Origin: Bacteroidetes/Chlorobi group bacterium MS-B_bin-24
GTDB taxonomy: Bacteria > Bacteroidota > Ignavibacteria > Kapaibacteriales > UBA2268
DNA length: 64,000 nucleotides
NCBI GenBank assembly: GCA_003731685.1
Contig: RCNO01000003.1
Location: 6,780-70,779 of the forward strand
Direction of reading: 5' to 3'
Shown here: positions 1,779 to 16,629 of the stretch, one piece after another
How positions within the stretch are numbered: position 1 is the stretch's first letter
Layout: every line of letters begins with the position of its first letter
Made by a program: the position numbers and the translations under genes
The notes under the pieces: model-generated
What the model saw: the letters and a program-made list of their open reading frames with translations, nothing else
Databases searched by the model: none
What the model was told of the DNA's origin: nothing

Positions 1779-4700
1779 GTGAAAAAAGAATTATTCGAAA
1801 AAATAGCAAAAGAAAAAGGACTGAGTATCCTTCGGGGTGTTGAAAGCGATGGAACTGTGCGCCGGACCGAAAGGCTAAATTTTGGCAAAAACCGTCGTTT
1901 TGCCGATTTTCCAGATTTGCTCAGTGTGCAGTTGGAATCCTACGAAGAGTTCCTTCAAGAGGATGTTCCGCCCGAAGAAAGGCGGAATGTCGGCTTGCAA
2001 TATGCTTTCAATTCCAATTTTCCAGTCGAAGATACTTCAGGAGTCTATCAGCTTGAATTTATAAGTTATTCTATTGAAAAGCCAAAATACACCGAAGAAG
2101 AGTGCCGAGAGCGCGAGCTTACCTACTCGAAAGCTTTGAAAGCGAAACTCCGTCTTTCGAGCAAAGCTGCACCCGATTCCGAAGATTATATCGAGGCAGT
2201 AGAACAGGAAGTGTATTTGGGCAATATCCCGGCGATGACCTCTCGCGGAACATTTATCTTCAACGGCTCCGAGCGAGTTGTTGTTTCGCAGTTACACCGC
2301 TCCCCGGGAGTGTTCTTTGATGATACACTGCATCCAAATGGAACAAGGATTTATTCTGCACGGATTATTCCATTCAAAGGTTCTTGGTTGGAATTTACAA
2401 CCGATATCCACGAGGTCCTGACTACTTACGTCGACCGCAAGAAAAAGTTTTTGACGACAACTTTTCTGCGGGCTCTTGGCTATTCATCGGATATGGAAAT
2501 TATTCAATTGTTCCAATTAGACGAAATAGTTACAAATGAACAATTGAACGAGAGTTATGCAGGGAGAAAGCTTTCGAGCGATGTAGTCGATTTAACAACG
2601 GGCGAGATTATTGCAACCCGCGATATGATTTTGACCACCGATTTAATCGAAAAGATAAAAAGCACACAAGTTCTGGACATTCGCCTTTATAAACCCTACG
2701 ACCCAAGCGAAGAACCTGTGATTGCAAGGACACTTTCGAAAGACCCGACACGAAACCGCGAAGAAGCTTTGTATCATATATTTAGGCAGTTACGAACAAC
2801 CGACCCGCCCGATTTAGCTGCGGCGGAAGGACTTTTGGAAAAATTGTTCTTCAATCCAAAACGCTACGATTTGGGTATTGTTGGTCGGTTTAAGATAAAT
2901 AAGAAACTTGGGTTAAATATCGACCCCGAAATCACTGTTTTGACAATCGAAGATATTATTGCTTCGATTAAGCATCTTCTTTATCTGCACGACAATAAGC
3001 TGAGCGGAGACGATATAGACCATCTTGGAAATAGAAGGGTTCGAACAGTTGGCGAGCAACTAACTGCCCAAGTGAATCTTGGTCTTGCACGAATGACAAG
3101 AACCATCCGCGAGCGGTTAAGTGTTCGCGAAGCCGAAAGCCTTACTCCGCAGGATTTGGTTAACGCTCGAACGATGAACTCGGTGATTAACCAGTTCTTT
3201 GGAACGAACCAGCTTTCCCAATTTATGGACCAAACGAATCCACTTGCGGAGTTAACACATAAGCGCAGAACTTCTGCTCTTGGTCCCGGCGGGTTGAATC
3301 GCGAACGAGCTGGATTCGAGGTTCGCGACGTCCATTACACCCACTATGGTCGGCTTTGCCCGATTGAAACGCCCGAAGGTCCAAACATTGGTTTGATTTC
3401 TTCGCTTGCATTGTTTGCTCGAATAAATGAAAATGGTTTTATTGAAACACCTTACAGAAAAGTTGTTAATGGCGTTGTTACCGACGAAATTGAATACTTA
3501 ACTGCCGAAGATGAGGATGGGAAAATTATTGCAACAGCTCAAACTCCATTGGACGAAAACGGTAGAATTCTTGGGGATAAGGTTAATGCACGAGTTTCGG
3601 GCGACTTCGTGATTGTTTCACCCGAAGAAGTGAACTATCTCGAAGTTGCGACCGAACAGATTGCAAGCGCTGCTGCTTCGTTGATTCCATTCCTTGAACA
3701 CGACGACGCAAATCGTGCCCTGATGGGTTCGAATATGCAACGGCAGGCGGTTCCTTTGCTTCGACCCGAGGCCCCATTGATTGGTGCCGGTATGGAAGCA
3801 AAAGTGGCAAAAGATTCAAGAACTCTGCTTTTAGCCGAAGGACCCGGTGTTGTGACTTATGTGGATTCCCAAAGAATTAGGATTAAATACGATGATATTC
3901 GCTCCGAAGAGGAAAAGCTAACCGATTTCTCGTTCCAACCTGAGAAGGAATACCAACTTTTGAAATTTTTCCGAACCAACCAAGATACTTGTGTTAATCA
4001 AAAGCCTATTGTTAGAGTTGGCGACAGAGTATTCAAGGGAATGCCTATTGCCGATGGAGCGGGAACGGATAACGGGGAACTTGCGCTGGGCAGAAATGTT
4101 TTGGCTGCTTTTATGCCATGGCGCGGCTATAACTTCGAGGACGCAATTGTGGTTTCGGAAAGACTTGTTGCCCAAGATATTTTCACATCGGTGCATATAG
4201 AAGAGTTTACTTTGCAGGTGCGCGATACGAAAAGAGGAGAAGAAGAGTTTACTCGCGACATTCCCAATGTTTCGGAAGAAGCCACGAAAGACTTGGACGA
4301 AGATGGCATTATCCGTGTTGGAGCTAAGGTTCGGGAAGGAGATATTTTGATAGGTAAGATAACTCCCAAAGGCGAAACGGACCCAACACCCGAAGAGAAA
4401 TTGCTCCGCGCAATCTTTGGCGATAAAGCTGGCGATGTTAAAGATACATCCTTGAAGGCTCCGCCGGGGTTGAAAGGTGTGGTTATCAATACAAAACTCT
4501 TTTCGCGAAGACATATCAGGAGTTTCGAAACCGAAGCCGAAGAGAATCGCAAACTTGAACAAATTAACCGTGCAGAACAAGAGAAACTTCGTGAGTTGAG
4601 CCACGAAGCAATTGTGAAATTGGCTAATATCTTAGATGGTCATAAGGTTTATGGATTGAAACTTAAAAATGGTGAAGTGATTTTCCCCAGCGGACACAAA

Positions 4701-5642
4701 GTTTCTGCCGAAGAGGTTATGCAATTCTTTTCGACACAATCTGTTACTTTCGAAGCGATTGATTTTCCAGCAGATAAGCCAGTTGTTGCAAACAAGGAGC
4801 GCGAAGACCTCCTCCGGAAAATGATTAGAAATTATAATGACCAAAAATATAAGATACAACAAACATTTAGAGCTCAACGAGCCAAAATAACCACTGGCGA
4901 CGAGCTTCAGCCCGGAATTGTAAAGATGGCAAAGGTTTACATTGCTAAAAAGAGAAAGCTTATGGTTGGCGATAAAATGGCTGGTCGCCATGGGAACAAG
5001 GGCATCGTTTCGATTATTGTTCCTGTCGAAGATATGCCATTCTTGCCCGATGGAACACCTGTCGATATCGTTTTGAATCCTCTTGGTGTGCCTTCGCGTA
5101 TGAATCTGGGACAATTGTTCGAGACTTCTTTGGGCTGGGCAGCTCAAAAATTAGGATTGAGATTTGCTTCGCCAATTTTTGATGGTGCCACTTGGGAACA
5201 AGTTTCGGAGTTTTTGCAAATGGCAGGGTTGCCAGCCGATGGGAAAACAATTCTTTACGATGGTCGAACAGGCGAGCCATTCCACGAAAAAGTAACTGTT
5301 GGAGTGATTTATATGATGAAACTTGTTCATATGGTCGAAGATAAAATCCACGCTCGTTCGATTGGTCCTTATTCGTTGATTACGCAACAACCTTTGGGCG
5401 GAAAGGCTCAGTTCGGTGGACAGAGGCTTGGGGAAATGGAGGTTTGGGCTTTGGAAGCTTACGGCGCTGCACATACTTTGCAAGAAATGCTCACAATTAA
5501 ATCCGATGATGTTGTAGGCAGAGCTAAAGCTTACGAAGCAATTGTCAAAGGCGATAATTTGGCCGACCCCAATGTTCCAGAATCGTTCAATGTCTTGGTT
5601 CGTGAATTACAAGGATTGTGTCTTGATGTTATTATTGAATAA
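1779..5642 (+). CDS. rpoB: DNA-directed RNA polymerase subunit beta
   Basis: 1287-aa ORF with a GTG start after GGAGGAAACAA. Conserved beta-subunit blocks are present (NMQRQAVPL, GDKMAGRHGNKGIVS, GGQRLGEMEVWALEAYGAA). Confidence 0.98.
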   Translation: MKKELFEKIAKEKGLSILRGVESDGTVRRTERLNFGKNRRFADFPDLLSVQLESYEEFLQEDVPPEERRNVGLQYAFNSNFPVEDTSGVYQLEFISYSIEKPKYTEEECRERELTYSKALKAKLRLSSKAAPDSEDYIEAVEQEVYLGNIPAMTSRGTFIFNGSERVVVSQLHRSPGVFFDDTLHPNGTRIYSARIIPFKGSWLEFTTDIHEVLTTYVDRKKKFLTTTFLRALGYSSDMEIIQLFQLDEIVTNEQLNESYAGRKLSSDVVDLTTGEIIATRDMILTTDLIEKIKSTQVLDIRLYKPYDPSEEPVIARTLSKDPTRNREEALYHIFRQLRTTDPPDLAAAEGLLEKLFFNPKRYDLGIVGRFKINKKLGLNIDPEITVLTIEDIIASIKHLLYLHDNKLSGDDIDHLGNRRVRTVGEQLTAQVNLGLARMTRTIRERLSVREAESLTPQDLVNARTMNSVINQFFGTNQLSQFMDQTNPLAELTHKRRTSALGPGGLNRERAGFEVRDVHYTHYGRLCPIETPEGPNIGLISSLALFARINENGFIETPYRKVVNGVVTDEIEYLTAEDEDGKIIATAQTPLDENGRILGDKVNARVSGDFVIVSPEEVNYLEVATEQIASAAASLIPFLEHDDANRALMGSNMQRQAVPLLRPEAPLIGAGMEAKVAKDSRTLLLAEGPGVVTYVDSQRIRIKYDDIRSEEEKLTDFSFQPEKEYQLLKFFRTNQDTCVNQKPIVRVGDRVFKGMPIADGAGTDNGELALGRNVLAAFMPWRGYNFEDAIVVSERLVAQDIFTSVHIEEFTLQVRDTKRGEEEFTRDIPNVSEEATKDLDEDGIIRVGAKVREGDILIGKITPKGETDPTPEEKLLRAIFGDKAGDVKDTSLKAPPGLKGVVINTKLFSRRHIRSFETEAEENRKLEQINRAEQEKLRELSHEAIVKLANILDGHKVYGLKLKNGEVIFPSGHKVSAEEVMQFFSTQSVTFEAIDFPADKPVVANKEREDLLRKMIRNYNDQKYKIQQTFRAQRAKITTGDELQPGIVKMAKVYIAKKRKLMVGDKMAGRHGNKGIVSIIVPVEDMPFLPDGTPVDIVLNPLGVPSRMNLGQLFETSLGWAAQKLGLRFASPIFDGATWEQVSEFLQMAGLPADGKTILYDGRTGEPFHEKVTVGVIYMMKLVHMVEDKIHARSIGPYSLITQQPLGGKAQFGGQRLGEMEVWALEAYGAAHTLQEMLTIKSDDVVGRAKAYEAIVKGDNLADPNVPESFNVLVRELQGLCLDVIIE

Positions 5643-5669: not shown

Positions 5670-8600
5670 ATGCAAGCAAAGCCAATTCCAAAAAAAGGTT
5701 TTCGGAAAGTTATGATTAAGCTGGCTTCCCCGGATTCTATACTTGAACGCTCTCGCGGGGAAGTTACCAGACCAGAAACTATTAACTATCGTTCTTATCG
5801 ACCAGAAAAAGATGGTTTATTTTGTGAGAGAATTTTTGGTCCCGTAAAAGACTGGGAATGTGCCTGCGGGAAATATAAACGAATTCGATACAAGGGAATA
5901 ATTTGCGACCGTTGCGGTGTCGAGGTTACTCAAAAGACCGTTCGCCGAGAGCGGATGGGTCGTATTATGCTTGCAACTCCTGTTGTGCACATTTGGTTTT
6001 TGAGAAGTTTGCCCAGCAAAATTGGTGCGGTTCTTGGTTTATCGACCAAAGATTTGGAAAAAATAACATATTACGAAACTTATGTAGTTGTTAATCCCGG
6101 CCGGTTCCCATTCAAAAAATACGACCTTCTTTCGGATGTAGAATACCAGAACATTATGAGCCAAATTCCCGAAGAGGAGAAGTATCTCGATGATGACGAC
6201 CCGAACAAATTCGTTGCTTTAATGGGCGGACAGGCTATTAAAGAGCTATTGAAGCGGGTCGACGTCGAAGATGAATATTACCGATTACGTCAGGAGATGC
6301 GAGATGAGACCAACCTACAGAAGAAACAGGAATTGTTGAAGCGACTTAAGGTTTTGGAGGCATTTCTACCGGACGAAAAGACTGACGAACCAATCAACAA
6401 GCCCGAGTGGATGGTGCTCGATGTTATCCCGGTTATACCGCCAGACCTTCGACCTTTGATACCACTCGAAGGCGGTAGGTTTGCTGCTTCGGATTTGAAC
6501 GATTTGTATCGCCGGGTTATTATTCGCAACAATAGATTAAAGCGATTAATTGATATAAAAGCTCCGGGCGTAATTATCCGAAACGAACAGAGGATGTTGC
6601 AAGAAAGCGTTGATGCTTTGTTCGATAGTTCACGGAAAGCCACGAAGACCGAAGCTACTCGACCATTAAAATCCCTTGCCGACGCATTGAAAGGCAAACA
6701 AGGACGGTTCCGTCAGAATTTGCTTGGTAAGCGTGTGGATTATTCTGGCCGTTCGGTTATCGTTGTTGGTCCAGAATTGAAGATGCACGAGTGTGGCTTG
6801 CCGAAAGATATGGCTGTCGAATTGTTTAAGCCATTTATTATTAGGAAGTTAATCGAGCGGGGCTATGTCAAAACCGTTAAAAGTGCCAAGAAAATGGTCG
6901 AGCAAAAACGGACCGAGGTTTGGGATATCCTTGAGAAGGTAATCGAGAACCATCCCGTATTACTCAACCGCGCTCCGACACTTCACAGAGTTGGTATTCA
7001 GGCATTCCAACCAAGACTAATCGAAGGAAAAGCAATTCAACTACATCCGTTGGTTTGTACAGCGTTCAACGCAGACTTCGACGGCGACCAAATGGCTGTG
7101 CACGTTCCGCTAAGTTGGGAGGCACAGCTCGAGGCTTTGCTTTTGATGCTGGCTCCGCATAACATTATGCATACTCAAAATGGCGACCCAATTGCTGTTC
7201 CTTCGCAAGATATGGTCTTGGGAATCTATTACATTACAAAAGCCAAATCGGGCGTAAAAGGCGAAGGCAAGTTGTTTAATTCTCCCGAGGAAGTGATTAT
7301 TGCATACAATAACGGCGCAGTTGACTTGCATGCTAAAATCAAAGTGAGAATGGACGGCAAATATGTCGAAACTACAACTGGCAGAATTTTGTTTAACCAG
7401 ATTGTGCCGAAAGAACTTGGATTTATCAATGAATTGTTGACAAAGAAGAGATTGCGCCAAATAATTGGTTATTGCTTCCGAATTGCAGGGCTGGCTACAA
7501 CAGTTGAATTTTTGGACAACTTGAAGCAAATGGGATTTGAATTTGCAACGCGTGGCGGTTTGTCGGTGGGTATTCCCGATGTAATTGTGCCAAAGGAGAA
7601 GTACGAAATTATCGAGCAAGCCCAAAAGCGCGTCGATGAAATCGAAAATGCTTACCAAAATGGTGTCATTAGCTTTGGCGAAAGATATAATAAGATTATC
7701 GATACTTGGTCGACAGCAACAAATCGTGTTGCGGATAAGTTGTATAATGAAATTGCCAAAGTATATCAAGGGTTCAATACATTCTGGATGATGCTTGATT
7801 CGCAGGCTCGTGGTTCCAAAGAGCAGATACGACAGCTTGCTGGGATGCGAGGTTTGATGGCAAAGCCTCGTAAATCGTTGACTGGTTCAACTGGTGAATT
7901 AATTGAGAACCCGATTCTTTCTAATTTCAAAGAAGGATTGTCGGTGCTTGAATATTTCATTTCCACACACGGTGCAAGAAAGGGACTTGCCGACACCGCT
8001 TTGAAGACCGCCGATGCTGGTTATCTAACTCGACGCTTGCACGATGTTGCCCAAGATATTATCATTACCGAAGTAGACTGTGGCACAATTCGTGGTGTTA
8101 ACACTACTGCTTTGAAGGAAGGCGAAGAGGTTAAAGAAACTTTGTACGAAAGAATTCTTGGTAGGGTTGCACTTTGGGATGTTGTTAATCCGTTGACCGG
8201 CGAGGTCCTTGTCAAGGCTGGAGAATTGATTGATGAGGAGATTGCACAAAAGATAGAAGAATCACCAGTCGAAGAAGTTACAATCCGAAGCGTTTTGACT
8301 TGCGAATCACGTCACGGAGTTTGTGCAAAATGTTACGGACGGAATCTTGCAACAGGTAAACTTGTGGATGTTGGCGAAGCAGTTGGGACAATTGCGTCGC
8401 AGTCAATTGGCGAGCCGGGTACTCAGCTGACCTTGAGAACATTCCACACTGGTGGAACTGCATTACTGATAACGAGCCAGTCCTCTGTAACAGCAAAATT
8501 CGATGGTGTAGTGCAATTCGAAAATGTCCGAATTGTAACCTACGAGGAAGATGAAGAGGAAGTTCAAGTTGTTGTGTCCCGAAGTGGTGTTATAAATATC

Positions 8601-9950
8601 GTTGAACCTGAAAGCAACCGAGTTTTGACCAAATACGATGCTATGTATGGTGCAGTTTTGAAGGTTCGCGACGGCGAGCAAGTCAAAAAAGGTCAACTTT
8701 TGTACGAATGGGACCCATACAATGCTACGATTATTACGGAAGTTAGTGGTAGGGTTCGTTTCAAGGATATGATTCACAATGTTACTTATCGTGAGGTTAA
8801 TGATGAACAAACCGGACATATTACGAAGGTTGTAATTGAATCACGAGATAAAAATAAGCAACCTACGATTGAGATTCTTGACGACGAAGGCAATGTGCTT
8901 CGTTCCTATTCTATCCCCGTTAAGGCCCAATTAAGAGTAGATGAGGATGAATATGTTGGTGTTGGAACTGCACTGGTGAAAATCCCACGAGATTTGGGTC
9001 GTATGCGTGATATCACTGGTGGTTTGCCTCGTGTAACGGAATTATTCGAAGCAAGGGCACCGCAGAATCCTGCTATCGTTTCCGAAATCGATGGTATTGT
9101 TACCTTCGACAAAGTCAAGCGTGGACAAAGAACGATTTTGGTTACTTCGCTCGATGGGAAAACAGTGCGGGATTACAACATTCCGTTTGGGAAATACATC
9201 CTTGTTCAAGATGGGGATTTCGTTCGCGCTGGCGACCGCCTGACCGATGGAGATATAAACCCGCACGATATACTTAGAATCAAAGGACCGCACGCTGTCC
9301 AAGAATACTTGGTTAATGAGATCCAAGAAGTTTATCGAATGCAAGGTGTTAAGATAAACGACAAGCATATTGAGATTATCGTTCGTCAGATGTTGCAAAA
9401 ATATAAAATTTCCGACCCGGGCGATTCCCGCTTCCTTGAAAATGATTATGTCGACAGAATCCGTATTCTCGACGAGAACGAGAAGTTGAAGAAGCAAGTT
9501 GTTATTACGGATAAGGGTGATTCGAAGTTTAAAGTCGGGCAGATAGTAAGCAAGGACAAGTTCCGCGAGGTTAACCAAGATTTGCGAAAGAAAGGCAAGA
9601 AAGTAGCCCAAGCCCGACCTGCTGAACCGGCGATAGCCGAGCCTGTCCTGTTGGGCATCACCCAAGCTTCGTTGGAGACCGACAGCTGGCTTTCGGCTGC
9701 GTCGTTCCAAGAAACCACGCGTGTTCTTTCCGAAGCCGCCGTCGAAGCCAAGGTGGATTATCTTTATGGCTTGAAGGAAAACATTATTCTTGGTCAACTC
9801 ATTCCCGCTGGCACAGGCTTGAAACATTATCAAGATATGATAGTTAAAAGTAAAGTAGGGAATATATTTGCCGAAGAGATTGAATTGCCACCGACCGTTA
9901 TTCAAAGGGCTACCCCAATTGAACCATCGCGGGAAATCGAATCGTTGTGA
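5670..9950 (+). CDS. rpoC: DNA-directed RNA polymerase subunit beta'
   Basis: 1426-aa ORF with the N-terminal zinc-binding Cys cluster ([23 protein letters not shown]) and the catalytic NADFDGDQM motif. It directly follows rpoB. Confidence 0.98.
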
Positions 9951-9992
9951 GAAATATAATTTTTTCGGAGGTTAATTATTTGAATTATATGG

Positions 9993-10040
9993 GCGTAGCA
10001 ATGAAAATGAAAATTGCTACGCTCATTTTAATGTTTTTAC
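9993..10040 (+). terminator. Rho-independent terminator after rpoC
   Basis: Perfect 10-bp stem GCGTAGCAAT (9993-10002) / ATTGCTACGC (10013-10022) with a 10-nt loop, then TCATTTTAATGTTTTT. Confidence 0.6.
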
Positions 10041-10155
10041 AATAATTGATAATGTTTCCGAAACAGAATTTTTAGAAATTTGCTTAAAATTAACATAGAT
10101 TAAAAATATTTGTTGTTTGAAACCTTGAAATTTTTGTGAACAATTTGTTTTGTTT

Positions 10156-12249
10156 ATGGACCATATTTATAATTTAAGTTTAATAAGGAATATAGGGATT
10201 ACCGCTCATATTGATTCTGGTAAGACCACACTGAGCGAAAGGATATTGTATTACACTGGGAAAATACACCAAATTGTTGAGGTGCGCGATAAAAGCGGAG
10301 CCGGACCCACTCTCGATGCGATGGATTTGGAAAGAGAAAAAGGAATTACAATTCAATCTGCTTCGACTTATTTTAAGTGGAAAGATTATCATACAAACTT
10401 AATTGATACACCCGGGCACATAGACTTTACAGTAGAGGTTGAACGGGCTTTGCGAGTTCTCGATGGTGCGATACTTGTGTTGTGTGCTGTTGCTGGTGTG
10501 CAAAGCCAAACTATTACTGTGGACCGGCAGACTCGTCGCTACAATGTGGCACGGATTGCGTTCATCAACAAAGTAGATAGGTCGGGTGCCAATCCCGATA
10601 AAGTCTTACAGCAGATGAAGGAGAAATTGAACCTTAGGCCTGTGTTGGTTACAATGCCTATTGGGCTCGAAGATAGCTTTGCAGGGGTGGTCGACCTTTT
10701 GAAAATGAAAGCGGTATATTTCGAAGGAAATAATGGCGAAATTGTTGTCGAAAAAGATATTCCCGATGAGCTTATAGAAGAAGCAACCTTCCGACGGCTA
10801 CAACTTGTTGAAACACTGGCTGATTTTGATGATGAAATTGCTGAACTATATCTTGCCGACGAGGAAGTGCCAACGGAGGTGATTATTCCTGTGCTACGCC
10901 GCTTGACAATTTCGCATCTTGTTACCCCCGTATATGTTGGCTCGGCAAAGAAGAACAAGGGTGTTCAACCTTTGCTCGATGGAGTGGGTATGTTCCTGCC
11001 AAGCCCCGATGAGCGAGAAAACGAAGCCTTCGATTTAGATAATAGCGAAGCGAAGGTGAAATTGTCCTGCGATATTGATAAGCCTTTTGTTGGCTTGGCA
11101 TTTAAACTCGAAGATGGTCGCTTTGGGCAGTTGACTTATATGAGGATTTACCAGGGCAAGGTTAGGAAAGGCGATGTAATTTATAATACGAAGAGCAAGA
11201 AGAAGATTAAAGTGCCAAGAATTGTAAGGATGCATGCACAAGAGATGCACGATATCGAAGAGGCTTATGCTGGAGATATTGTAGCAATGTTTGGTGTTGA
11301 ATGTTATTCAGGTGATACTTTTACCGATGGTACGGTGAATTATTCCCTGCAATCTATGTTTGTGCCTACACCAGTGATTGAGCTTTCTGTTGCACCGAAA
11401 GAGAAGACCACGCTTTCGAACTTCTCGAAAGCATTGAATAGATTCCAAAAAGAGGACCCAACATTTCAGGTTATGCGCGACGAGGAAACTGGCGAAACGA
11501 TAATAAAAGGTATGGGAGAACTCCATCTGGAGATTTATATCGAAAGAATCAAAAGAGAATACAATTGTGAAGTAGTGGTTGGGAAAACCAAGGTTGCGTA
11601 TCGCGAGACAATCACTCGTAGAGCGGACTTTAATTATACCCACAAGAAGCAAACGGGGGGAGCAGGACAGTTTGCACGCGTTGGTGGTTATGTCGAACCG
11701 ATACCAGCGACCGAAGGTAAAGAACATGAATTTGTCGACCAAGTTGTTGGTGGAGTAATAGCCCGAGAATTTATCCCGGCTTGCGATAAAGGATTTCAAG
11801 AGCAATTGAAGGAAGGCATTTTGATTGGGCAACCAGTTGTTAATGTGCGAGTTGTTTTGAATGATGGACAAACACACCCTGTCGATTCATCGGAACTTGC
11901 TTTTAAGCTTGCATCGAAATATGCATTGAAAGAAGCACTTGCAAAGGCGGGACCTGTGATTTTAGAACCAATTATGAAGTTGGAAGTAACAGCACCCGAA
12001 GAGTTCCAAGGAGTGATTATTGGACAAATTAACCAAAGGCGTGGAATAATTATGAACACGCGAATTGATAATGGCTTTGTAGTTATCGAAGCCGAGGTAC
12101 CATTGAAGGAAATGTTTGGGTATTCTTCGGATTTGCGTGGGGTAACTCAAGGCAAAGGGGAGTTTACGATGGAGTTCCTTAAGTATTCTTCCGTGCCCAA
12201 AAGCGTGCAGGATGAATTAATCGAAGAATATCGAAAGAGTAAGAAATAA
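10156..12249 (+). CDS. Elongation factor G paralogue (mitochondrial EF-G1 / spd-EFG1-like), intact domain IV loops
   Basis: G motifs [14 protein letters not shown] and NKVD are present. Strings such as [28 protein letters not shown] and [14 protein letters not shown] recall mtEF-G1. The domain IV loops [11 protein letters not shown] and [14 protein letters not shown] are intact. The start could be ATG 10156 or the tracked TTG 10150. Confidence 0.9.
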
Positions 12250-12290
12250 AAATTTTTAAAAATTTTTTAAAAACTTTTTAAAAAGATTTT
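12248..12290. repeat. Four phased A5/T5 tracts (period 10-11 bp)
   Basis: AAAAATTTTT / AAAAATTTTTT / AAAAACTTTTT / AAAAAGATTTT read directly after the EF-G paralogue stop codon. The helical-repeat phasing suggests curved DNA or an UP-like element upstream of rpsL. Confidence 0.6.
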
Positions 12291-12318
12291 GATATTAATT
12301 TTTTTTTCTCTAATTTTG
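12288..12318 (+). promoter_or_regulatory. Candidate Bacteroidetes-type promoter of the str operon (-33 TTTG / -7 TAnnTTTG)
   Basis: TTTG at 12288-12291 and TAATTTTG at 12311-12318 are separated by 19 bp. That matches the published Bacteroides sigma-AB consensus geometry. AGGAG (12359-12363) precedes the GTG start at 12371. Confidence 0.35.
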
Positions 12319-12370
12319 TAGTCTCTTTTTTTTGAAAATGTGGAATTTTATTATTTTTAGGAGAATTTGA

Positions 12371-12757
12371 GTGCCAACGATAAGTCAGTTGATTAGGAAG
12401 CCGAGAAAGAAACTGCAGAAGAAAAGCAAATCGCCGGCATTGAAGGGATGCCCGCAGAGGCGTGGAGTTTGTACTCGTGTATACACGACTACGCCGAAAA
12501 AGCCTAATTCAGCGTTGCGAAAAGTTGCCAAGGTGCGATTGAGTTCAGGTTATGAAGTTATTGCGTATATACCCGGCGAAGGACACAATCTTCAGGAGCA
12601 CTCAATAGTTTATGTTCGAGGGGGCCGCGTTAAAGATTTGCCCGGTGTTCGTTATCACATTGTTCGTGGAGTTGCCGATACGCAAGGAGTCGAGGGACGA
12701 AAGCAAGGTCGGTCGAAATATGGAACTAAACGGCCCAAACAAGCAGCTTCTAAGTAA
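12371..12757 (+). CDS. rpsL: 30S ribosomal protein S12
   Basis: GTG start. Hallmark S12 sequence ([11 protein letters not shown]..., [36 protein letters not shown]). Confidence 0.97.
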
Positions 12758-12783
12758 TATTATATGAATAGGGATACTATACA

Positions 12784-13251
12784 ATGAGGAAGAAGAGAGC
12801 AGAGAAGAGACCAGTTGAACCCGATCCGAAGTATCAGGACATCCTTGTTGCAAGGATGATAAACACGGTATTGCGGAAAGGGAAGAAAAGTTTAGCAAGG
12901 AAGATTGTATACGAAGCATTGGACATTGTTGGTCAAAAGACCAAACAGAACCCGCTGGATGTATTCCGGAAGGCGGTGTCGAATGTTGCTCCTTTGATTG
13001 AGGTACGCTCTCGCCGAATTGGAGGAGCAACCTATCAAGTGCCTGTAGAGGTTCGAGAAGACCGAAGGATTTCGCTTGCTTTGCGATGGATTAGAGTGTT
13101 CGCAAGTCAAAGGAAGGACAAATCTATGAGCGCGCGTTTAGCATCGGAAATTATCGCAGCAGCCAACAACGAAGGTGCCTCTGTCAAAAAGCGCGAAGAC
13201 ACGCACCGAATGGCAGAAGCTAACAAGGCTTTTGCTCATTTCAAATGGTAA
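12784..13251 (+). CDS. rpsG: 30S ribosomal protein S7
   Basis: 155 aa and S7-like ([32 protein letters not shown]..., ...[15 protein letters not shown]). It follows rpsL. Confidence 0.96.
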
Positions 13252-13295
13252 CGACTATGATGGTTCTTTGTCAATAGAAATGCTGTTAGTGTGTT

Positions 13296-15353
13296 ATGCC
13301 CCGTAAGGTTGGAATAGAAAAGGTTCGCAATATTGGGATTATGGCTCATATTGACGCGGGGAAAACAACCACTACAGAAAGATTTTTGTTCTACACCGGA
13401 TTTTTGCATCGTCCCGGAGAAGTCGACGAAGGCACCGCCTTTATGGACTATATGGAACAGGAAAAGGAACGAGGGATTACAATTACGTCGGCGGCGACGA
13501 CTTTTTTTTGGCGAGACCATCAAATTAATTTGATTGATACACCGGGGCACGTCGATTTCACTGCCGAAGTCCAGCGTTCGCTCCGAGTACTCGATGGGGC
13601 CATTGCTATTTTCTGTGGCGTTGGCGGGGTTGAACCACAATCGGAGACTGTTTGGCACCAAGCCGATATGTATAACGTCCCTCGTATTGCTTATGTTAAC
13701 AAGATGGACCGAATGGGCGCGGATTTTTACCGTGTTATACAAATGATGAAAGATAAACTCAACGCAAAGCCAGCTGTTATTGAATTGCCTATTGGTGCCG
13801 AGGATTCTTTTGTTGGTGTGGTCGACTTGATTAGAGAAAAGGCGATTTATTTCGACGAAGAAACCAAAGGCTTTAAGTATTACTATGATGAAGTGCCTTC
13901 GGATATGGTTGATTTGGTGAAGGAATGGCGCGATAAACTTGTTGATGCAGTTGCTGAATGCGACGATGACCTGCTAAGCTATTATCTCGAAAATGGGACA
14001 CTTACCGAAGAACAGGTTGAATTGGGATTGCGAAAGGCAACTTTGTCGAATAGTCTTGTTCCTGTACTTTGTGGTTCATCGAAAAAATATATTGGTGTTC
14101 AGCCTCTGCTCGATGCTGTGATTAAATATTTGCCTTCACCGACCGATATAGGCGTCTTTTGGGGCTACGATTATAATAATCACGAAAAGAAAATTTCTCG
14201 AAAAGCGAATGATGATGAGCCATTTTCTTGTCTTGCTTTTAAAATCCTTTCGGACCCGTATTTGAAAAAACTAACATTTGTTAGAATTTATTCCGGGACG
14301 ATAAAGGTTGGGCAAGTTGCTTTTAATACGAATTCGGGAAAGCGGGAAAGGATACAGAAGATTTTGCGTTTGTATGCGAATAGGAAAGAAGAGTTGAACG
14401 AAGTTTATAGCGGAGAGATTGTTGCCTTTCCCGATTTAAGGTCGACTAAAACTGGCGATACTTTGTGCGACGAAAAGCACAAGATACTTTACGAAAGAAT
14501 TACTTTTGCTGAACCTGTTATAAATCAAAGGATTGAAGCGAAGACTCAGCAGGACCGCGACCGATTGCTCGAAACTCTTGCAAAATTTGCCGAAGAGGAC
14601 CCAACCTTCCGATTTACAAACGAAGAGGAAAGCGGCGAAATTATCATCAGCGGTGTCGGGGAGTTGCAATTGGAAATAATTGCCGATAGGCTGAAACGCG
14701 AGCATAATCTCGATGTTAGAATTGGTAAGCCCCAAGTTGCTTATCGCGAAACGATTAGCTTGCCAGTGGAGGAAGAATATAGCTTTGAACGGCAAATTTC
14801 GGGGAAAAACAACTTTGGTTATGTTCGGGTGTTGCTTAAGCCTAACGAAAGAGGCAAAGGGAACGAAATTCGATTTCAAATATCCGAAGAAATTATTCCC
14901 AAACAATTTTGGAGTGCTATTGAAGAGGGAATTAAGGAAGGTTTGCAGATAGGCTTTTTAGGTTATCCGCTCACCGATGTTATTGTGGAAGTTACTGGCG
15001 GTAAATACGAACAGGAGTTTTGTACCGAGCTTGGCTATAAAATTGCTTCTTCAATGGCAGTCCGCGAAGCTTTGAGAAAGTGTAAATCGATTTTGCTCGA
15101 GCCAATATTTAAAGTGGAAATTGTTTCGCCCGAAGAATATGTTGGCGATATCATTTCGGATTTCAATTCTCGGAAGGGAAGAATCGAAGAACTGGATTTG
15201 CGAGGGAATTTCCAGATAATTCGAGGCTTTGCGCCACTATCGGAAATGTTCGGTTATGTTACTCATCTGCGTTCGTTAAGCCAAGGCAGAGCTTCGTATA
15301 CGATGGAATTTTCTCATTATGAACCGGTTGTAGAACAAAAATCTTTCGTCTAA
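13296..15353 (+). CDS. fusA: Elongation factor G family protein in the canonical fusA position, divergent domain IV
   Basis: G motifs [19 protein letters not shown] and NKMD are intact, and the gene sits between rpsG and tuf. The domain IV loops read [14 protein letters not shown] and [17 protein letters not shown] instead of the SGGxGQ and HxVDSSE patterns. Confidence 0.88.
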
Positions 15354-15417
15354 TGGCATTGAACTTTTTTAAGAATTTTATTATTAATAAATGTTGGTTT
15401 AATTAAGGAGTTTAAAA

Positions 15418-16629
15418 ATGGCTAAAGAAAAATTCGTTCGTTCGAAGCCTCACGTTAACATCGGAACCATTGGTCACATCGACCATGGCAAAACGACTTT
15501 AACAGCAGCAATCACAATGGCTCTTGCAAAGAAGGGCACAAACACCCAAGTTCGAACATTCGATTCGATTGACAATGCACCCGAAGAACGAGCACGAGGT
15601 ATCACAATCAACACTGCTCACGTGGAATACGAAACCGAGAAAAGGCATTATGCACACGTCGACTGTCCCGGGCACGCCGACTACATTAAGAATATGATTA
15701 CCGGTGCTGCCCAGATGGATGGTGCAATTCTTGTTGTTGCTGCCGACGATGGTCCTATGCCTCAAACCCGTGAGCACGTGCTTCTTGCTCGCCAGGTAAA
15801 CGTTCCGTACATTGTTGTGTTTTTGAACAAAATAGACATTGCCGACCCAGAGTTGGTTGATTTGATTGAGATGGAAGTTCGCGAATTGTTGAATAAATAC
15901 GAGTTTCCTGGCGATGATGTTCCTATTATTCGTGGTTCTGCTCTTTTAGCTATGCAAGCAGGGCTTGACCCAAATGCAAATGTTGACGACCCCCGTTTTA
16001 AACCAATTTACGATTTAATGGATGCTGTTGACGAATTCATCCCCACTCCACAAAGAGATATCGACAAGCCTTTCTTGATGCCAGTCGAAGATGTTTTCTC
16101 GATTACAGGCCGCGGAACTGTTGGAACTGGTCGAATCGAGCGTGGAATTATTCGTCTCAACGAAGAAGTCGAAATCGTTGGCTTTGGTTTGCACAAGAAG
16201 ACAACGGTTACTGGTATCGAAATGTTCCGTAAGATTCTCGACGAAGGCGTTGCAGGCGACAACGTTGGCTTGTTGCTTCGTGGTATCGATAAAGATGAGC
16301 TCGAACGAGGAATGGTTATTGCAAAGCCCGGCACAATTACACCACACACCAAGTTTAATGCACAAGTTTACGTTTTGAAGAAGGAAGAGGGCGGACGACA
16401 TACTCCATTCTTCTCGGGTTATCGACCCCAGTTCTATTTCCGAACAACAGATGTTACTGGTGTGATTCAATTGCCACAAGGCGTCGATATGGTTATGCCC
16501 GGAGATAATTTGGATAACATTACAATAGAGTTGATTACACCTGTTGCAATGGAGGAAGGACTTCGTTTTGCAATCCGCGAAGGTGGTCGAACAGTTGGCG
16601 CTGGTGTTGTAACAAAAATTATCGAGTAA
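15418..16629 (+). CDS. tuf: Elongation factor Tu
   Basis: 403 aa with [10 protein letters not shown] and DCPGHADY, and the C-terminal beta-barrel domains are conserved. It lies between fusA and rpsJ. Confidence 0.98.

Follow-up and report, generated by a model that had tools for sequence, protein, structure and literature searches.

An spdEFG1-type elongation factor G beside rpsL and loss of the domain IV tip in the str-operon EF-G of Kapaibacteriales: a probable division between translocation and ribosome recycling

Two EF-G genes around rpsL-rpsG

The DNA analysed here is a stretch of 64,000 nucleotides (hereafter the window) from the Bacteroidetes/Chlorobi group bacterium MS-B_bin-24, a member of the order Kapaibacteriales in the class Ignavibacteria (assembly GCA_003731685.1, contig RCNO01000003.1, positions 6,780 to 70,779 of the forward strand), and it carries two full-length genes of the elongation factor G (EF-G) family with only rpsL and rpsG between them. 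All the features of the window given below lie on its forward strand. Copy A (10156..12249, in an open reading frame, ORF, open from 10150; 697 amino acids, the public gene calls starting at the ATG 10156) stands directly downstream of rpoC (5670..9950, an ORF of 1426 amino acids). It is followed by the ORFs of rpsL (ribosomal protein S12; 12371..12757) and rpsG (S7; 12784..13251), then by copy B (13296..15353, 685 amino acids) and by tuf (EF-Tu; 15418..16629), the last gene of the str operon, after which comes the S10 operon. B thus occupies the rpsL-rpsG-B-tuf position. This two-gene arrangement had been described in a first-pass annotation made from the sequence alone, and both ORFs, as well as every A and B peptide string that it quoted, were found where it had placed them.

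A and B are 42% identical to each other. Both contain the five Pfam domains of EF-G (EFG_IV scoring 142.2 bits in A and 81.0 bits in B) and both pass the NCBI EF-G equivalog model TIGR00484 (926.7 bits for A and 900.9 bits for B, for a cut-off of 659.4 bits), so that annotation cannot tell them apart; the public gene call for B is "elongation factor G". The assembly (2.6 Mb in 109 contigs, 98.8% complete) has a single frr gene, which encodes the ribosome recycling factor (RRF). The codon adaptation index relative to the ribosomal-protein genes did not discriminate between the two copies (0.68 for A, 0.70 for B and 0.73 for tuf, as compared with 0.64-0.71 for unrelated genes), because the codon bias of this genome is too small for the index to inform on expression. 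The relatives recovered through A and B are metagenome-assembled genomes (MAGs) labelled Kapaibacterium, Ignavibacteria, Chlorobiota or Chloroherpeton, organism names that are unreliable.

Loss of the domain IV tip in copy B

Copy B has intact GTPase motifs (G1, G2 RGITI, G3 DTPGH and G4 NKMD), and its AlphaFold2 model retains the five-domain fold, with template modelling (TM) scores of 0.86-0.88 to solved EF-Gs and a mean predicted local distance difference test (pLDDT) score of 84 (84-91 in domain IV, and below 50 at residues 681-685). The tip of its domain IV is altered throughout. The loop I region (14784..14825; residues 497-510) has lost the canonical Q-[ST]-G-G-x-G-Q and reads QISGKNN where a canonical EF-G has QSGGRGQ, and the loop II region (14997..15038; residues 568-581) has lost both the histidine and the V-D-S motif. 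The alignment thereby bears out the first-pass annotation, which had described B as an EF-G in the textbook fusA slot with intact G1-G4 motifs and non-conserved loops, and it adds two losses to that description. The third tip element (14868..14915; residues 525-540) no longer has the canonical F..IVGGxIPxEYIP, and the terminal helix is missing, leaving a short and non-conserved C-terminal tail (15321..15350) of 10 amino acids, as compared with 13-24 in the comparators.

The register of the alignment, which had been set by eye, holds, as BLASTP, a MAFFT alignment of more than 200 EF-Gs and the AlphaFold2 model concur on the placement of loops I and II in B. In the model, domain IV keeps a beta-hairpin (491-501/504-516, with its turn at S502-G503) and a loop (570-577) followed by a helix (578-595), and the retention of this hairpin and this helix confirms the register. 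The E. coli residues 584-590, numbered with the initiator methionine (H583-E589 in the literature), correspond to E572-Q-E-F-C-T577-E578 of B.

The same losses are found in all of the 59 sequences of the B clade. None of them has the canonical loop I or the HxVDS loop II, which are both present in 50 of 50 canonical sequences, and the histidine, valine and aspartate of loop II are gone across the clade. The end of loop II is kept: the equivalent of E. coli S588 (T577 in B) is a serine or threonine in 56 of the 59 sequences, and the equivalent of E589 (E578 in B) is a glutamate or aspartate in 54. The column entropy at the B-clade tip is 2-3.4 bits, versus about 0 in 93 A-type proteins and in the 50 canonical EF-Gs, and the variable columns are those of loop I (residues 500-509), of the VGG element (525-540) and of the G-S-x-H-x-V-D-S part of loop II (568-576). 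In the canonical set QxGGxGQ, HxVDS, VGGxIP and the C-terminal helix are invariant or nearly so. Past the last conserved motif, the tail has a median length of 9 amino acids in the B clade, as against 15 in canonical EF-Gs, 22 in A and 23 in x, an EF-G described below.

Copy A has kept all that B has lost, as the first-pass annotation had proposed for the two loops: loop I (11641..11673; residues 496-506, with a column entropy of about 0 across A orthologues), the third tip element (11743..11778), loop II (11866..11895; residues 571-580) and the C-terminal helix with its extension (12193..12246; VPKxVQEELI...) are intact in the alignment. All A orthologues retain HKKQ[ST]GGxGQ, VGGxIPxE[FY]IP and HxVDSS, and they end in a tail of about 22 amino acids (VP+xVQEELI...); in those of the Fibrobacteres-Chlorobi-Bacteroidetes (FCB) group the median tail is 22 amino acids.

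The decay of B goes with the presence of an intact-tip partner. A-type genes (65-100% identity) occur in 35 of the 41 genomes of the order. Concerning the genomes where A was not found, G039 is only 60% complete, and the contig of G017 begins inside rpsL, so that any A would fall outside it. Two genomes of family f4, G027 and G037, have no A, and their single str-operon EF-G, which is 56% identical to B, has intact loops and an intact C-terminal helix and scores 1124.2 bits against TIGR00484 (locus L094), some 220 bits above B. In G019 and G020 the decayed B is accompanied not by A but by another intact-loop EF-G, which we call x and which is 46% identical to A as well as to B. Among the 40 genomes reached through B-clade loci, a decayed B is present in 39, namely 30 with A, eight with x (the loops of which were checked) and one with neither; the fortieth, G074, has a str-operon EF-G with intact loops and no A. 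Across 301 genomes sampled from the whole phylum, all 17 members of the order had A and none of the 284 others did. Nineteen genomes of the same class outside the order have one canonical EF-G each (1139-1174 bits) and an EFG-II-like paralogue, and the loops are intact in all seven of these canonical sequences that were obtained. A and B occur together in closed or single-contig genomes (CP058732, G026 and G035). Together, these data show that the decay of B is clade-wide and accompanied by an intact-tip partner, A or x (38 of 39 genomes), the sister lineage without A, which keeps the canonical loops, serving as a natural control.

The EF-G x (L090 1666-3864, minus strand; L092 164-2245, minus strand; and L194-L199) replaces A in eight genomes, some of them in the family of the window. 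It is 44-47% identical to A and to B, and it has intact tip loops, a C-terminal tail of 23 amino acids and no insertion in switch I.

Besides A or x, MS-B_bin-24 and its relatives have only the decayed B and, in most of these genomes, an EFG-II-type paralogue. In MS-B_bin-24 this third EF-G gene lies outside the window (contig C51, locus L003, 1489-3624) and encodes 711 amino acids, with a G2 region that reads ERKSSV and lacks RGITI, and with conserved tip loops including HPVDSNE. It scores 925.8 bits against NF058620 (cut-off 1000), the model of EFG-II/Bacteroides EF-G2, versus 458 bits for A and 405 bits for B. Ambiguous bases are frequent on contig C51 and show up as X in the translated proteins. 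G027 and G037 have the EFG-II paralogue, and several genomes in which B is decayed lack it. As its presence does not track the decay, EFG-II/EF-G2 was ruled out as the compensating translocase.

B is relaxed mainly in domain IV. Over one set of 24 genomes used for both copies, the mean pairwise identities of A and B are 0.70 and 0.69 in the G domain, 0.70 and 0.61 in domain II, 0.80 and 0.70 in domain III, 0.71 and 0.48 in domain IV, and 0.78 and 0.69 in domain V. The dN/dS ratio (omega) was taken from a single pair of loci, L009/L050 (dS of about 0.68), most other pairs being saturated (dS above 1.5). In that pair, omega is 0.037 for A and 0.052 for B over the whole gene, 0.016 for A and 0.086 for B over domain IV, and 0.105 over the three tip elements of B taken together. 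A decaying pseudogene was ruled out, since none of the genomes examined has a truncated B and the omega of B is about 0.05; the internal stops flagged in B-locus alignments lie at the 3' end and are read as the longer A overrunning the stop of B. B also stays in the str operon in all genomes examined. Judged by its length and omega, B is a selected, working gene.

Ancestry of the two copies

The best match of A in the Protein Data Bank (PDB) is the mitochondrial EF-G1 (801 bits, versus 673 bits for the Thermus EF-G), and A is 52% identical, over the aligned length, to the human EF-G1mt. In our trees A falls in a clade (support 100/100) with the human mtEFG1 (PDB 6vlz) and the spdEFG1-type proteins of Borreliella, Borrelia, Treponema, Leptospira, planctomycetes, Aminicenantes and Myxococcus/Myxococcota. 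All members of this clade have a three-residue insertion in switch I (K46-S47-G48 of A, in RDKSGAGPT; 10291..10299), which is a three-column gap in every non-spdEFG1 EF-G aligned, canonical EF-Gs reading EVHEGA---ATMD at this place. A switch-I 'KDG' indel defines spdEFG1 (Margus et al. 2011, PMC3150367). By its tree position and this insertion, A is an EF-G of the spdEFG1/mtEFG1 type, as the first-pass annotation had recognised from its peptide strings, one of which, GKGEFTMEF, A also carries. Beyond the MAGs of the FCB group, the nearest relatives of A are proteins of Myxococcota, Bdellovibrionota and Oligoflexia (63-66% identity). The FCB copies form one subclade (100*), which fits a single lateral acquisition. 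The x proteins group together on a long branch (100/100), as the sister clade of spdEFG1.

In the x-type relatives L027 and L033, rpoC adjoins rpsL with a gap of about 200-300 bp, in which tblastn found no EF-G, and by its gene order this junction is the 'empty' version of the site of A. In the window, rpoC is preceded by rpoB (1779-5642) and followed, 43 nt after its stop codon, by a hairpin (GCGTAGCAAT-N10-ATTGCTACGC, then a T-rich run; 9993..10027) with a perfect stem of 10 bp and a loop of 10 nt. This putative terminator, read from the sequence, is likely that of rpoC; it was not listed by a terminator scan of 9800-15600 because its loop exceeds the limit of the scan. The A/T-rich spacer between A and rpsL (12250..12370) carries TTTG (12288-12291) and TAATTTTG (12311-12318), which resemble a promoter of the Bacteroidota type, a type outside the coverage of the sigma-70 promoter scan that was run on 9800-15600.

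Copy B has a different origin. We gave preference to trees from which all of domain IV was excluded, computed with a careful maximum-likelihood search under a posterior mean site frequency (PMSF) model; spirochaete and planctomycete spdEFG2 stood in for mtEFG2 in them. In these trees, the B clade (100/100) is sister to L094, the intact-loop single-copy EF-G (100/98), and B and L094 group with the canonical EF-Gs of the same class (92/93), while the spirochaete and planctomycete spdEFG2 form another clade (98/86), which joins x and spdEFG1 (96/92). As the loops of L094 are still intact, the decay of B is later than the B/L094 split, which itself came long after spdEFG2 and mtEFG2 had arisen.

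The alternative is that B is a true spdEFG2 orthologue, which would have arrived paired with A and displaced the native fusA, a matter that concerns the ancestry of B and not its function. When only the loop columns were dropped, the grouping of B with the planctomycete EF-Gs was not rejected by the approximately unbiased (AU) test (p = 0.63), and the constrained tree was better by 15.7 log-likelihood (lnL) units than the free tree of a quick search, a search that itself placed the planctomycete spdEFG2 away from B; because the test did not disfavour the constrained grouping, we did not rely on this full-length tree. With domain IV excluded, the grouping of B with the planctomycete spdEFG2 is rejected (AU p = 0.0047), and the result becomes borderline when the spirochaetes are added (p = 0.063, delta lnL 50.9). 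The B clade and the planctomycete str-operon EF-Gs (L267, L269, L270 and L272) also share T-E-x-G at the end of loop II, where canonical EF-Gs have S-E-x-A, which speaks for an orthology and which, in our view, suggests convergent selection on the loop II motif. The signal that unites B with spdEFG2 lies in domain IV, and we read it as convergence. Given also the well-supported position of B beside L094, descent from spdEFG2 appears quite improbable. Most likely, B is an independent and convergent derivative of the native fusA. The first-pass annotation had envisaged that B might lie within the canonical EF-Gs and that its substitutions might be common there; the descent of B from the EF-G of its own lineage agrees with the former, and the latter falls, as the substitutions occur only in the clade that is accompanied by A or x.

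A probable translocase and its probable recycling partner

Loops I and II of domain IV insert into the decoding centre during translocation. In E. coli, H583K or single substitutions in loop I cripple translocation (PMC4666400, PMC8203779), a deletion of loop I leaves the RRF-dependent disassembly of ribosomes unaffected (PMC4666400), and S588P abolishes recycling, which most point mutations of loop II do not (PMC4666400). By analogy with the split EF-G systems, we propose that the ancestor of the order would have acquired A, the nearest relatives of which are Bdellovibrionota/Myxococcota proteins, once by lateral transfer, and that the native fusA, now B, would have stayed in rpsL-rpsG-fusA-tuf. 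Having lost loop I, His-x-V-D-S, the VGG element and the C-terminal helix, B would no longer insert into the decoding centre; it keeps an intact GTPase, domains II, III and V, the scaffold of domain IV and the Ser/Thr-Glu end of loop II. Together with the single RRF of the genome, B would split post-termination ribosomes, a function similar to that of the Borrelia and mitochondrial EF-G2 and of independent origin, while A, or x in its place, would perform translocation. The rewritten tip, the retained equivalents of S588 and E589, the loss of the helix, the intact GTPase, the universal retention within the str operon and an intact-tip partner all fit a recycling specialist. We put at about 0.65 the probability that A is the translocase and B the RRF-dependent recycling factor, a division that the first-pass annotation had suggested and that the present analysis supports, the loop register having held and the substitutions of B being restricted to the clade that has such a partner.

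Several points weigh against this proposal. The Borrelia 'b' paralogue with which B is compared below appears to be the recycling-only EF-G2, an identification that is indirect. One MAG, G061, has a decayed B and neither A nor x; it is fragmentary, with its str locus on a contig of 4.7 kb. The tips of B are constrained (omega of about 0.1) and have a conserved lysine at loop I, such that they may have a new function. In E. coli, the loop II deletions 584-586 or 586-589 abolish recycling (PMC4666400), and a rewritten loop II is not obviously compatible with recycling, though that of the Borrelia-type EF-G2 is rewritten alike.

In an alternative reading, B is re-purposed for a ribosome function other than canonical recycling with RRF, such as the splitting of hibernating or stalled ribosomes, a stress role or ribosome protection, and A does both translocation and recycling. 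The tip omega, the conserved loop I lysine and a conserved T-E-L-G motif, along with the effect of the loop II deletions, would be accounted for in this way, and A has every canonical EF-G feature, so that its sequence does not exclude a dual function. However, the spdEFG1-type proteins tested in Borrelia and mitochondria do not recycle, and their tip-altered partners do (PMC8203779; PMC3150367), while the constitutive str operon, in which B lies in all genomes examined, and the universal retention of B fit an essential housekeeping job better, which makes a re-purposed B unlikely. If B still translocated by means of a lineage-specific alternative tip, A being auxiliary or condition-specific like the extra EF-Gs of gamma-proteobacteria or EFG-II, the conserved fusA slot and the intact GTPase would be explained, and some unusual EF-G paralogues, reportedly including Bacteroides EF-G2, do translocate, though slowly. 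Yet no conserved replacement motif is seen, the tip columns of B being among its most variable and being invariant in the sampled known translocases; in E. coli, one substitution at H583 or within loop I is enough to cripple translocation; and the decay is tied to A or x (with the exception of the fragmentary G061), an intact-loop x being present where A is missing. A translocating B is thus very improbable.

Comparison with known split EF-G systems

The names spdEFG1 and spdEFG2 were reportedly defined by Atkinson and Baldauf in 2011, and the pair of Borrelia burgdorferi, EF-G1 and a recycling-only EF-G2, is said to have been described by Suematsu et al. in 2010. The spdEFG1/spdEFG2 pair is known from Spirochaetes, Planctomycetes and delta-proteobacteria, with isolated spdEFG1 in Fibrobacter and two cyanobacteria (PMC3150367, PMC4342817). 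These two papers do not mention Ignavibacteria or Kapabacteria, and they cite Chlorobi only for the EFG-II motif; a full-text literature search for EF-G and Ignavibacteria found nothing relevant. Like the known pairs, the present one occurs in a genome without an intact canonical EF-G and combines an spdEFG1-type protein with a tip-altered partner. The planctomycetes have an spdEFG1-type gene elsewhere in the genome and, in the str operon, an EF-G with decayed loops I, II and III (loop II QLPPITPETTEAG, loop I GGKDQ), their partner lying in rpsL-rpsG-X as B does. Borreliella, Borrelia and Treponema have an spdEFG1-type gene (57-59% identity to A) and a second paralogue with scrambled loops I and II and a short C-terminus (for example ...FFYFKEKIS), the VGG element being mostly deleted in Borrelia and Borreliella; like B, this paralogue has lost its C-terminal helix along with loops I, II and III. 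In B. persica this paralogue has F-A-G-K at loop I, which matches the Gly-to-Ala change in loop I of the recycling-only EF-G2 of B. burgdorferi (PMC8203779), and therefore the paralogue was taken as the published EF-G2.

The differences from the spd pair are threefold. With domain IV excluded, B lies outside spdEFG2 and derives from the EFG-I of its own lineage, its sister L094 being intact; A is directly upstream of rpsL and not elsewhere in the genome; and the host, of the Kapabacteria/Ignavibacteria type within FCB, is not among the phyla listed in PMC3150367 and PMC4342817. As regards mitochondria, A is closest to EF-G1mt (GFM1), its best match in the PDB, and in the recycling-only EF-G2mt (GFM2) loop I is altered and the C-terminal helix is shorter, so that it does not clash with RRF and RRFmt can bind at the same time (PMC8203779), two kinds of change that are also found in B. 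However, B scores 479 bits to EF-G2mt, versus 746 to canonical EF-G and 524 to EF-G1mt, and EF-G2mt has a single Gly-to-Asp change in loop I, the decay of the B loops being far wider. With the canonical EF-G of E. coli and T. thermophilus, B shares the operon slot, the five-domain fold, the GTPase motifs and a score above the cut-off. It differs from it by the absence of QxGGxGQ, HxVDS, VGGxIP and the C-terminal helix (900.9 bits, versus 1124.2 for L094), and in that genomes with a canonical EF-G, such as G027, G037 and those of the same class, need have no other EF-G besides an EFG-II-type paralogue, whereas the decayed B has a partner in 38 of 39 genomes. EFG-II/Bacteroides EF-G2 (NF058620) is another extra paralogue of FCB bacteria, to which the third gene (below the cut-off of the model) may belong, and neither A nor B is a member of it. 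EF-G1A and EF-G1B of Pseudomonas aeruginosa (PMC3832671) are likewise two genes, one of them in the str operon and its counterpart at another locus, with divided activities; they are recent EFG-I duplicates with intact tips, unlike the lateral spdEFG1 and the tip-decayed partner found here.

Two further observations concern other phyla. An Aminicenantales MAG (G387) has an spdEFG1-type gene (L266) and a str-operon EF-G (L258) the tip of which is partly decayed (RQTGGKTQYGHC, GSFHEEYSTFLAYK); judging by its loops, this pair may represent a halfway point of the same process, reached in a different phylum. The extra EF-Gs of a member of the Bdellovibrionales (L182) and of Archangium and Myxococcus (L188/L189) have retained the loop I GG and the loop II histidine, have a changed V-D-S (HDTESS, HVRDST) and in our trees fall outside the spirochaete and planctomycete spdEFG2, which may be compared with the ambiguity of the delta-proteobacterial 'spdEFG2' flagged by Margus et al.

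A division of EF-G functions with an spdEFG1 translocase was already known. What is new is the lineage, a partner that comes from the native fusA and not from spdEFG2, and the internal control, together with the replacement of one partner by another. The mitochondrial-type EF-G1 is hereby extended to a phylum for which it is not listed in PMC3150367 and PMC4342817, and synteny would give the name fusA to a probable non-translocase, B, across a whole order of FCB bacteria. With the B clade, dozens of naturally occurring EF-Gs become available whose loop I, VGG element, C-terminal helix and histidine end of loop II are scrambled, the Ser/Thr-Glu end of loop II and the remainder of the protein being under strong selection; this bears on a disputed point, namely which parts of domain IV are needed for ribosome splitting. 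That recycling-only EF-Gs have a second origin, separate from that of spdEFG2 and mtEFG2, through the capture of A beside rpsL and the shedding of the fusA tip, with A being swappable for x, is in our judgement an evenly balanced proposition. Our findings suggest that EF-G subfunctionalisation follows repeatably from the acquisition of spdEFG1. If the second origin is indeed independent, the B clade would be a naturally occurring set of minimal, recycling-only EF-Gs, one that delimits the parts of domain IV truly required for splitting ribosomes, and this pairing would be a repeatable outcome of evolution.

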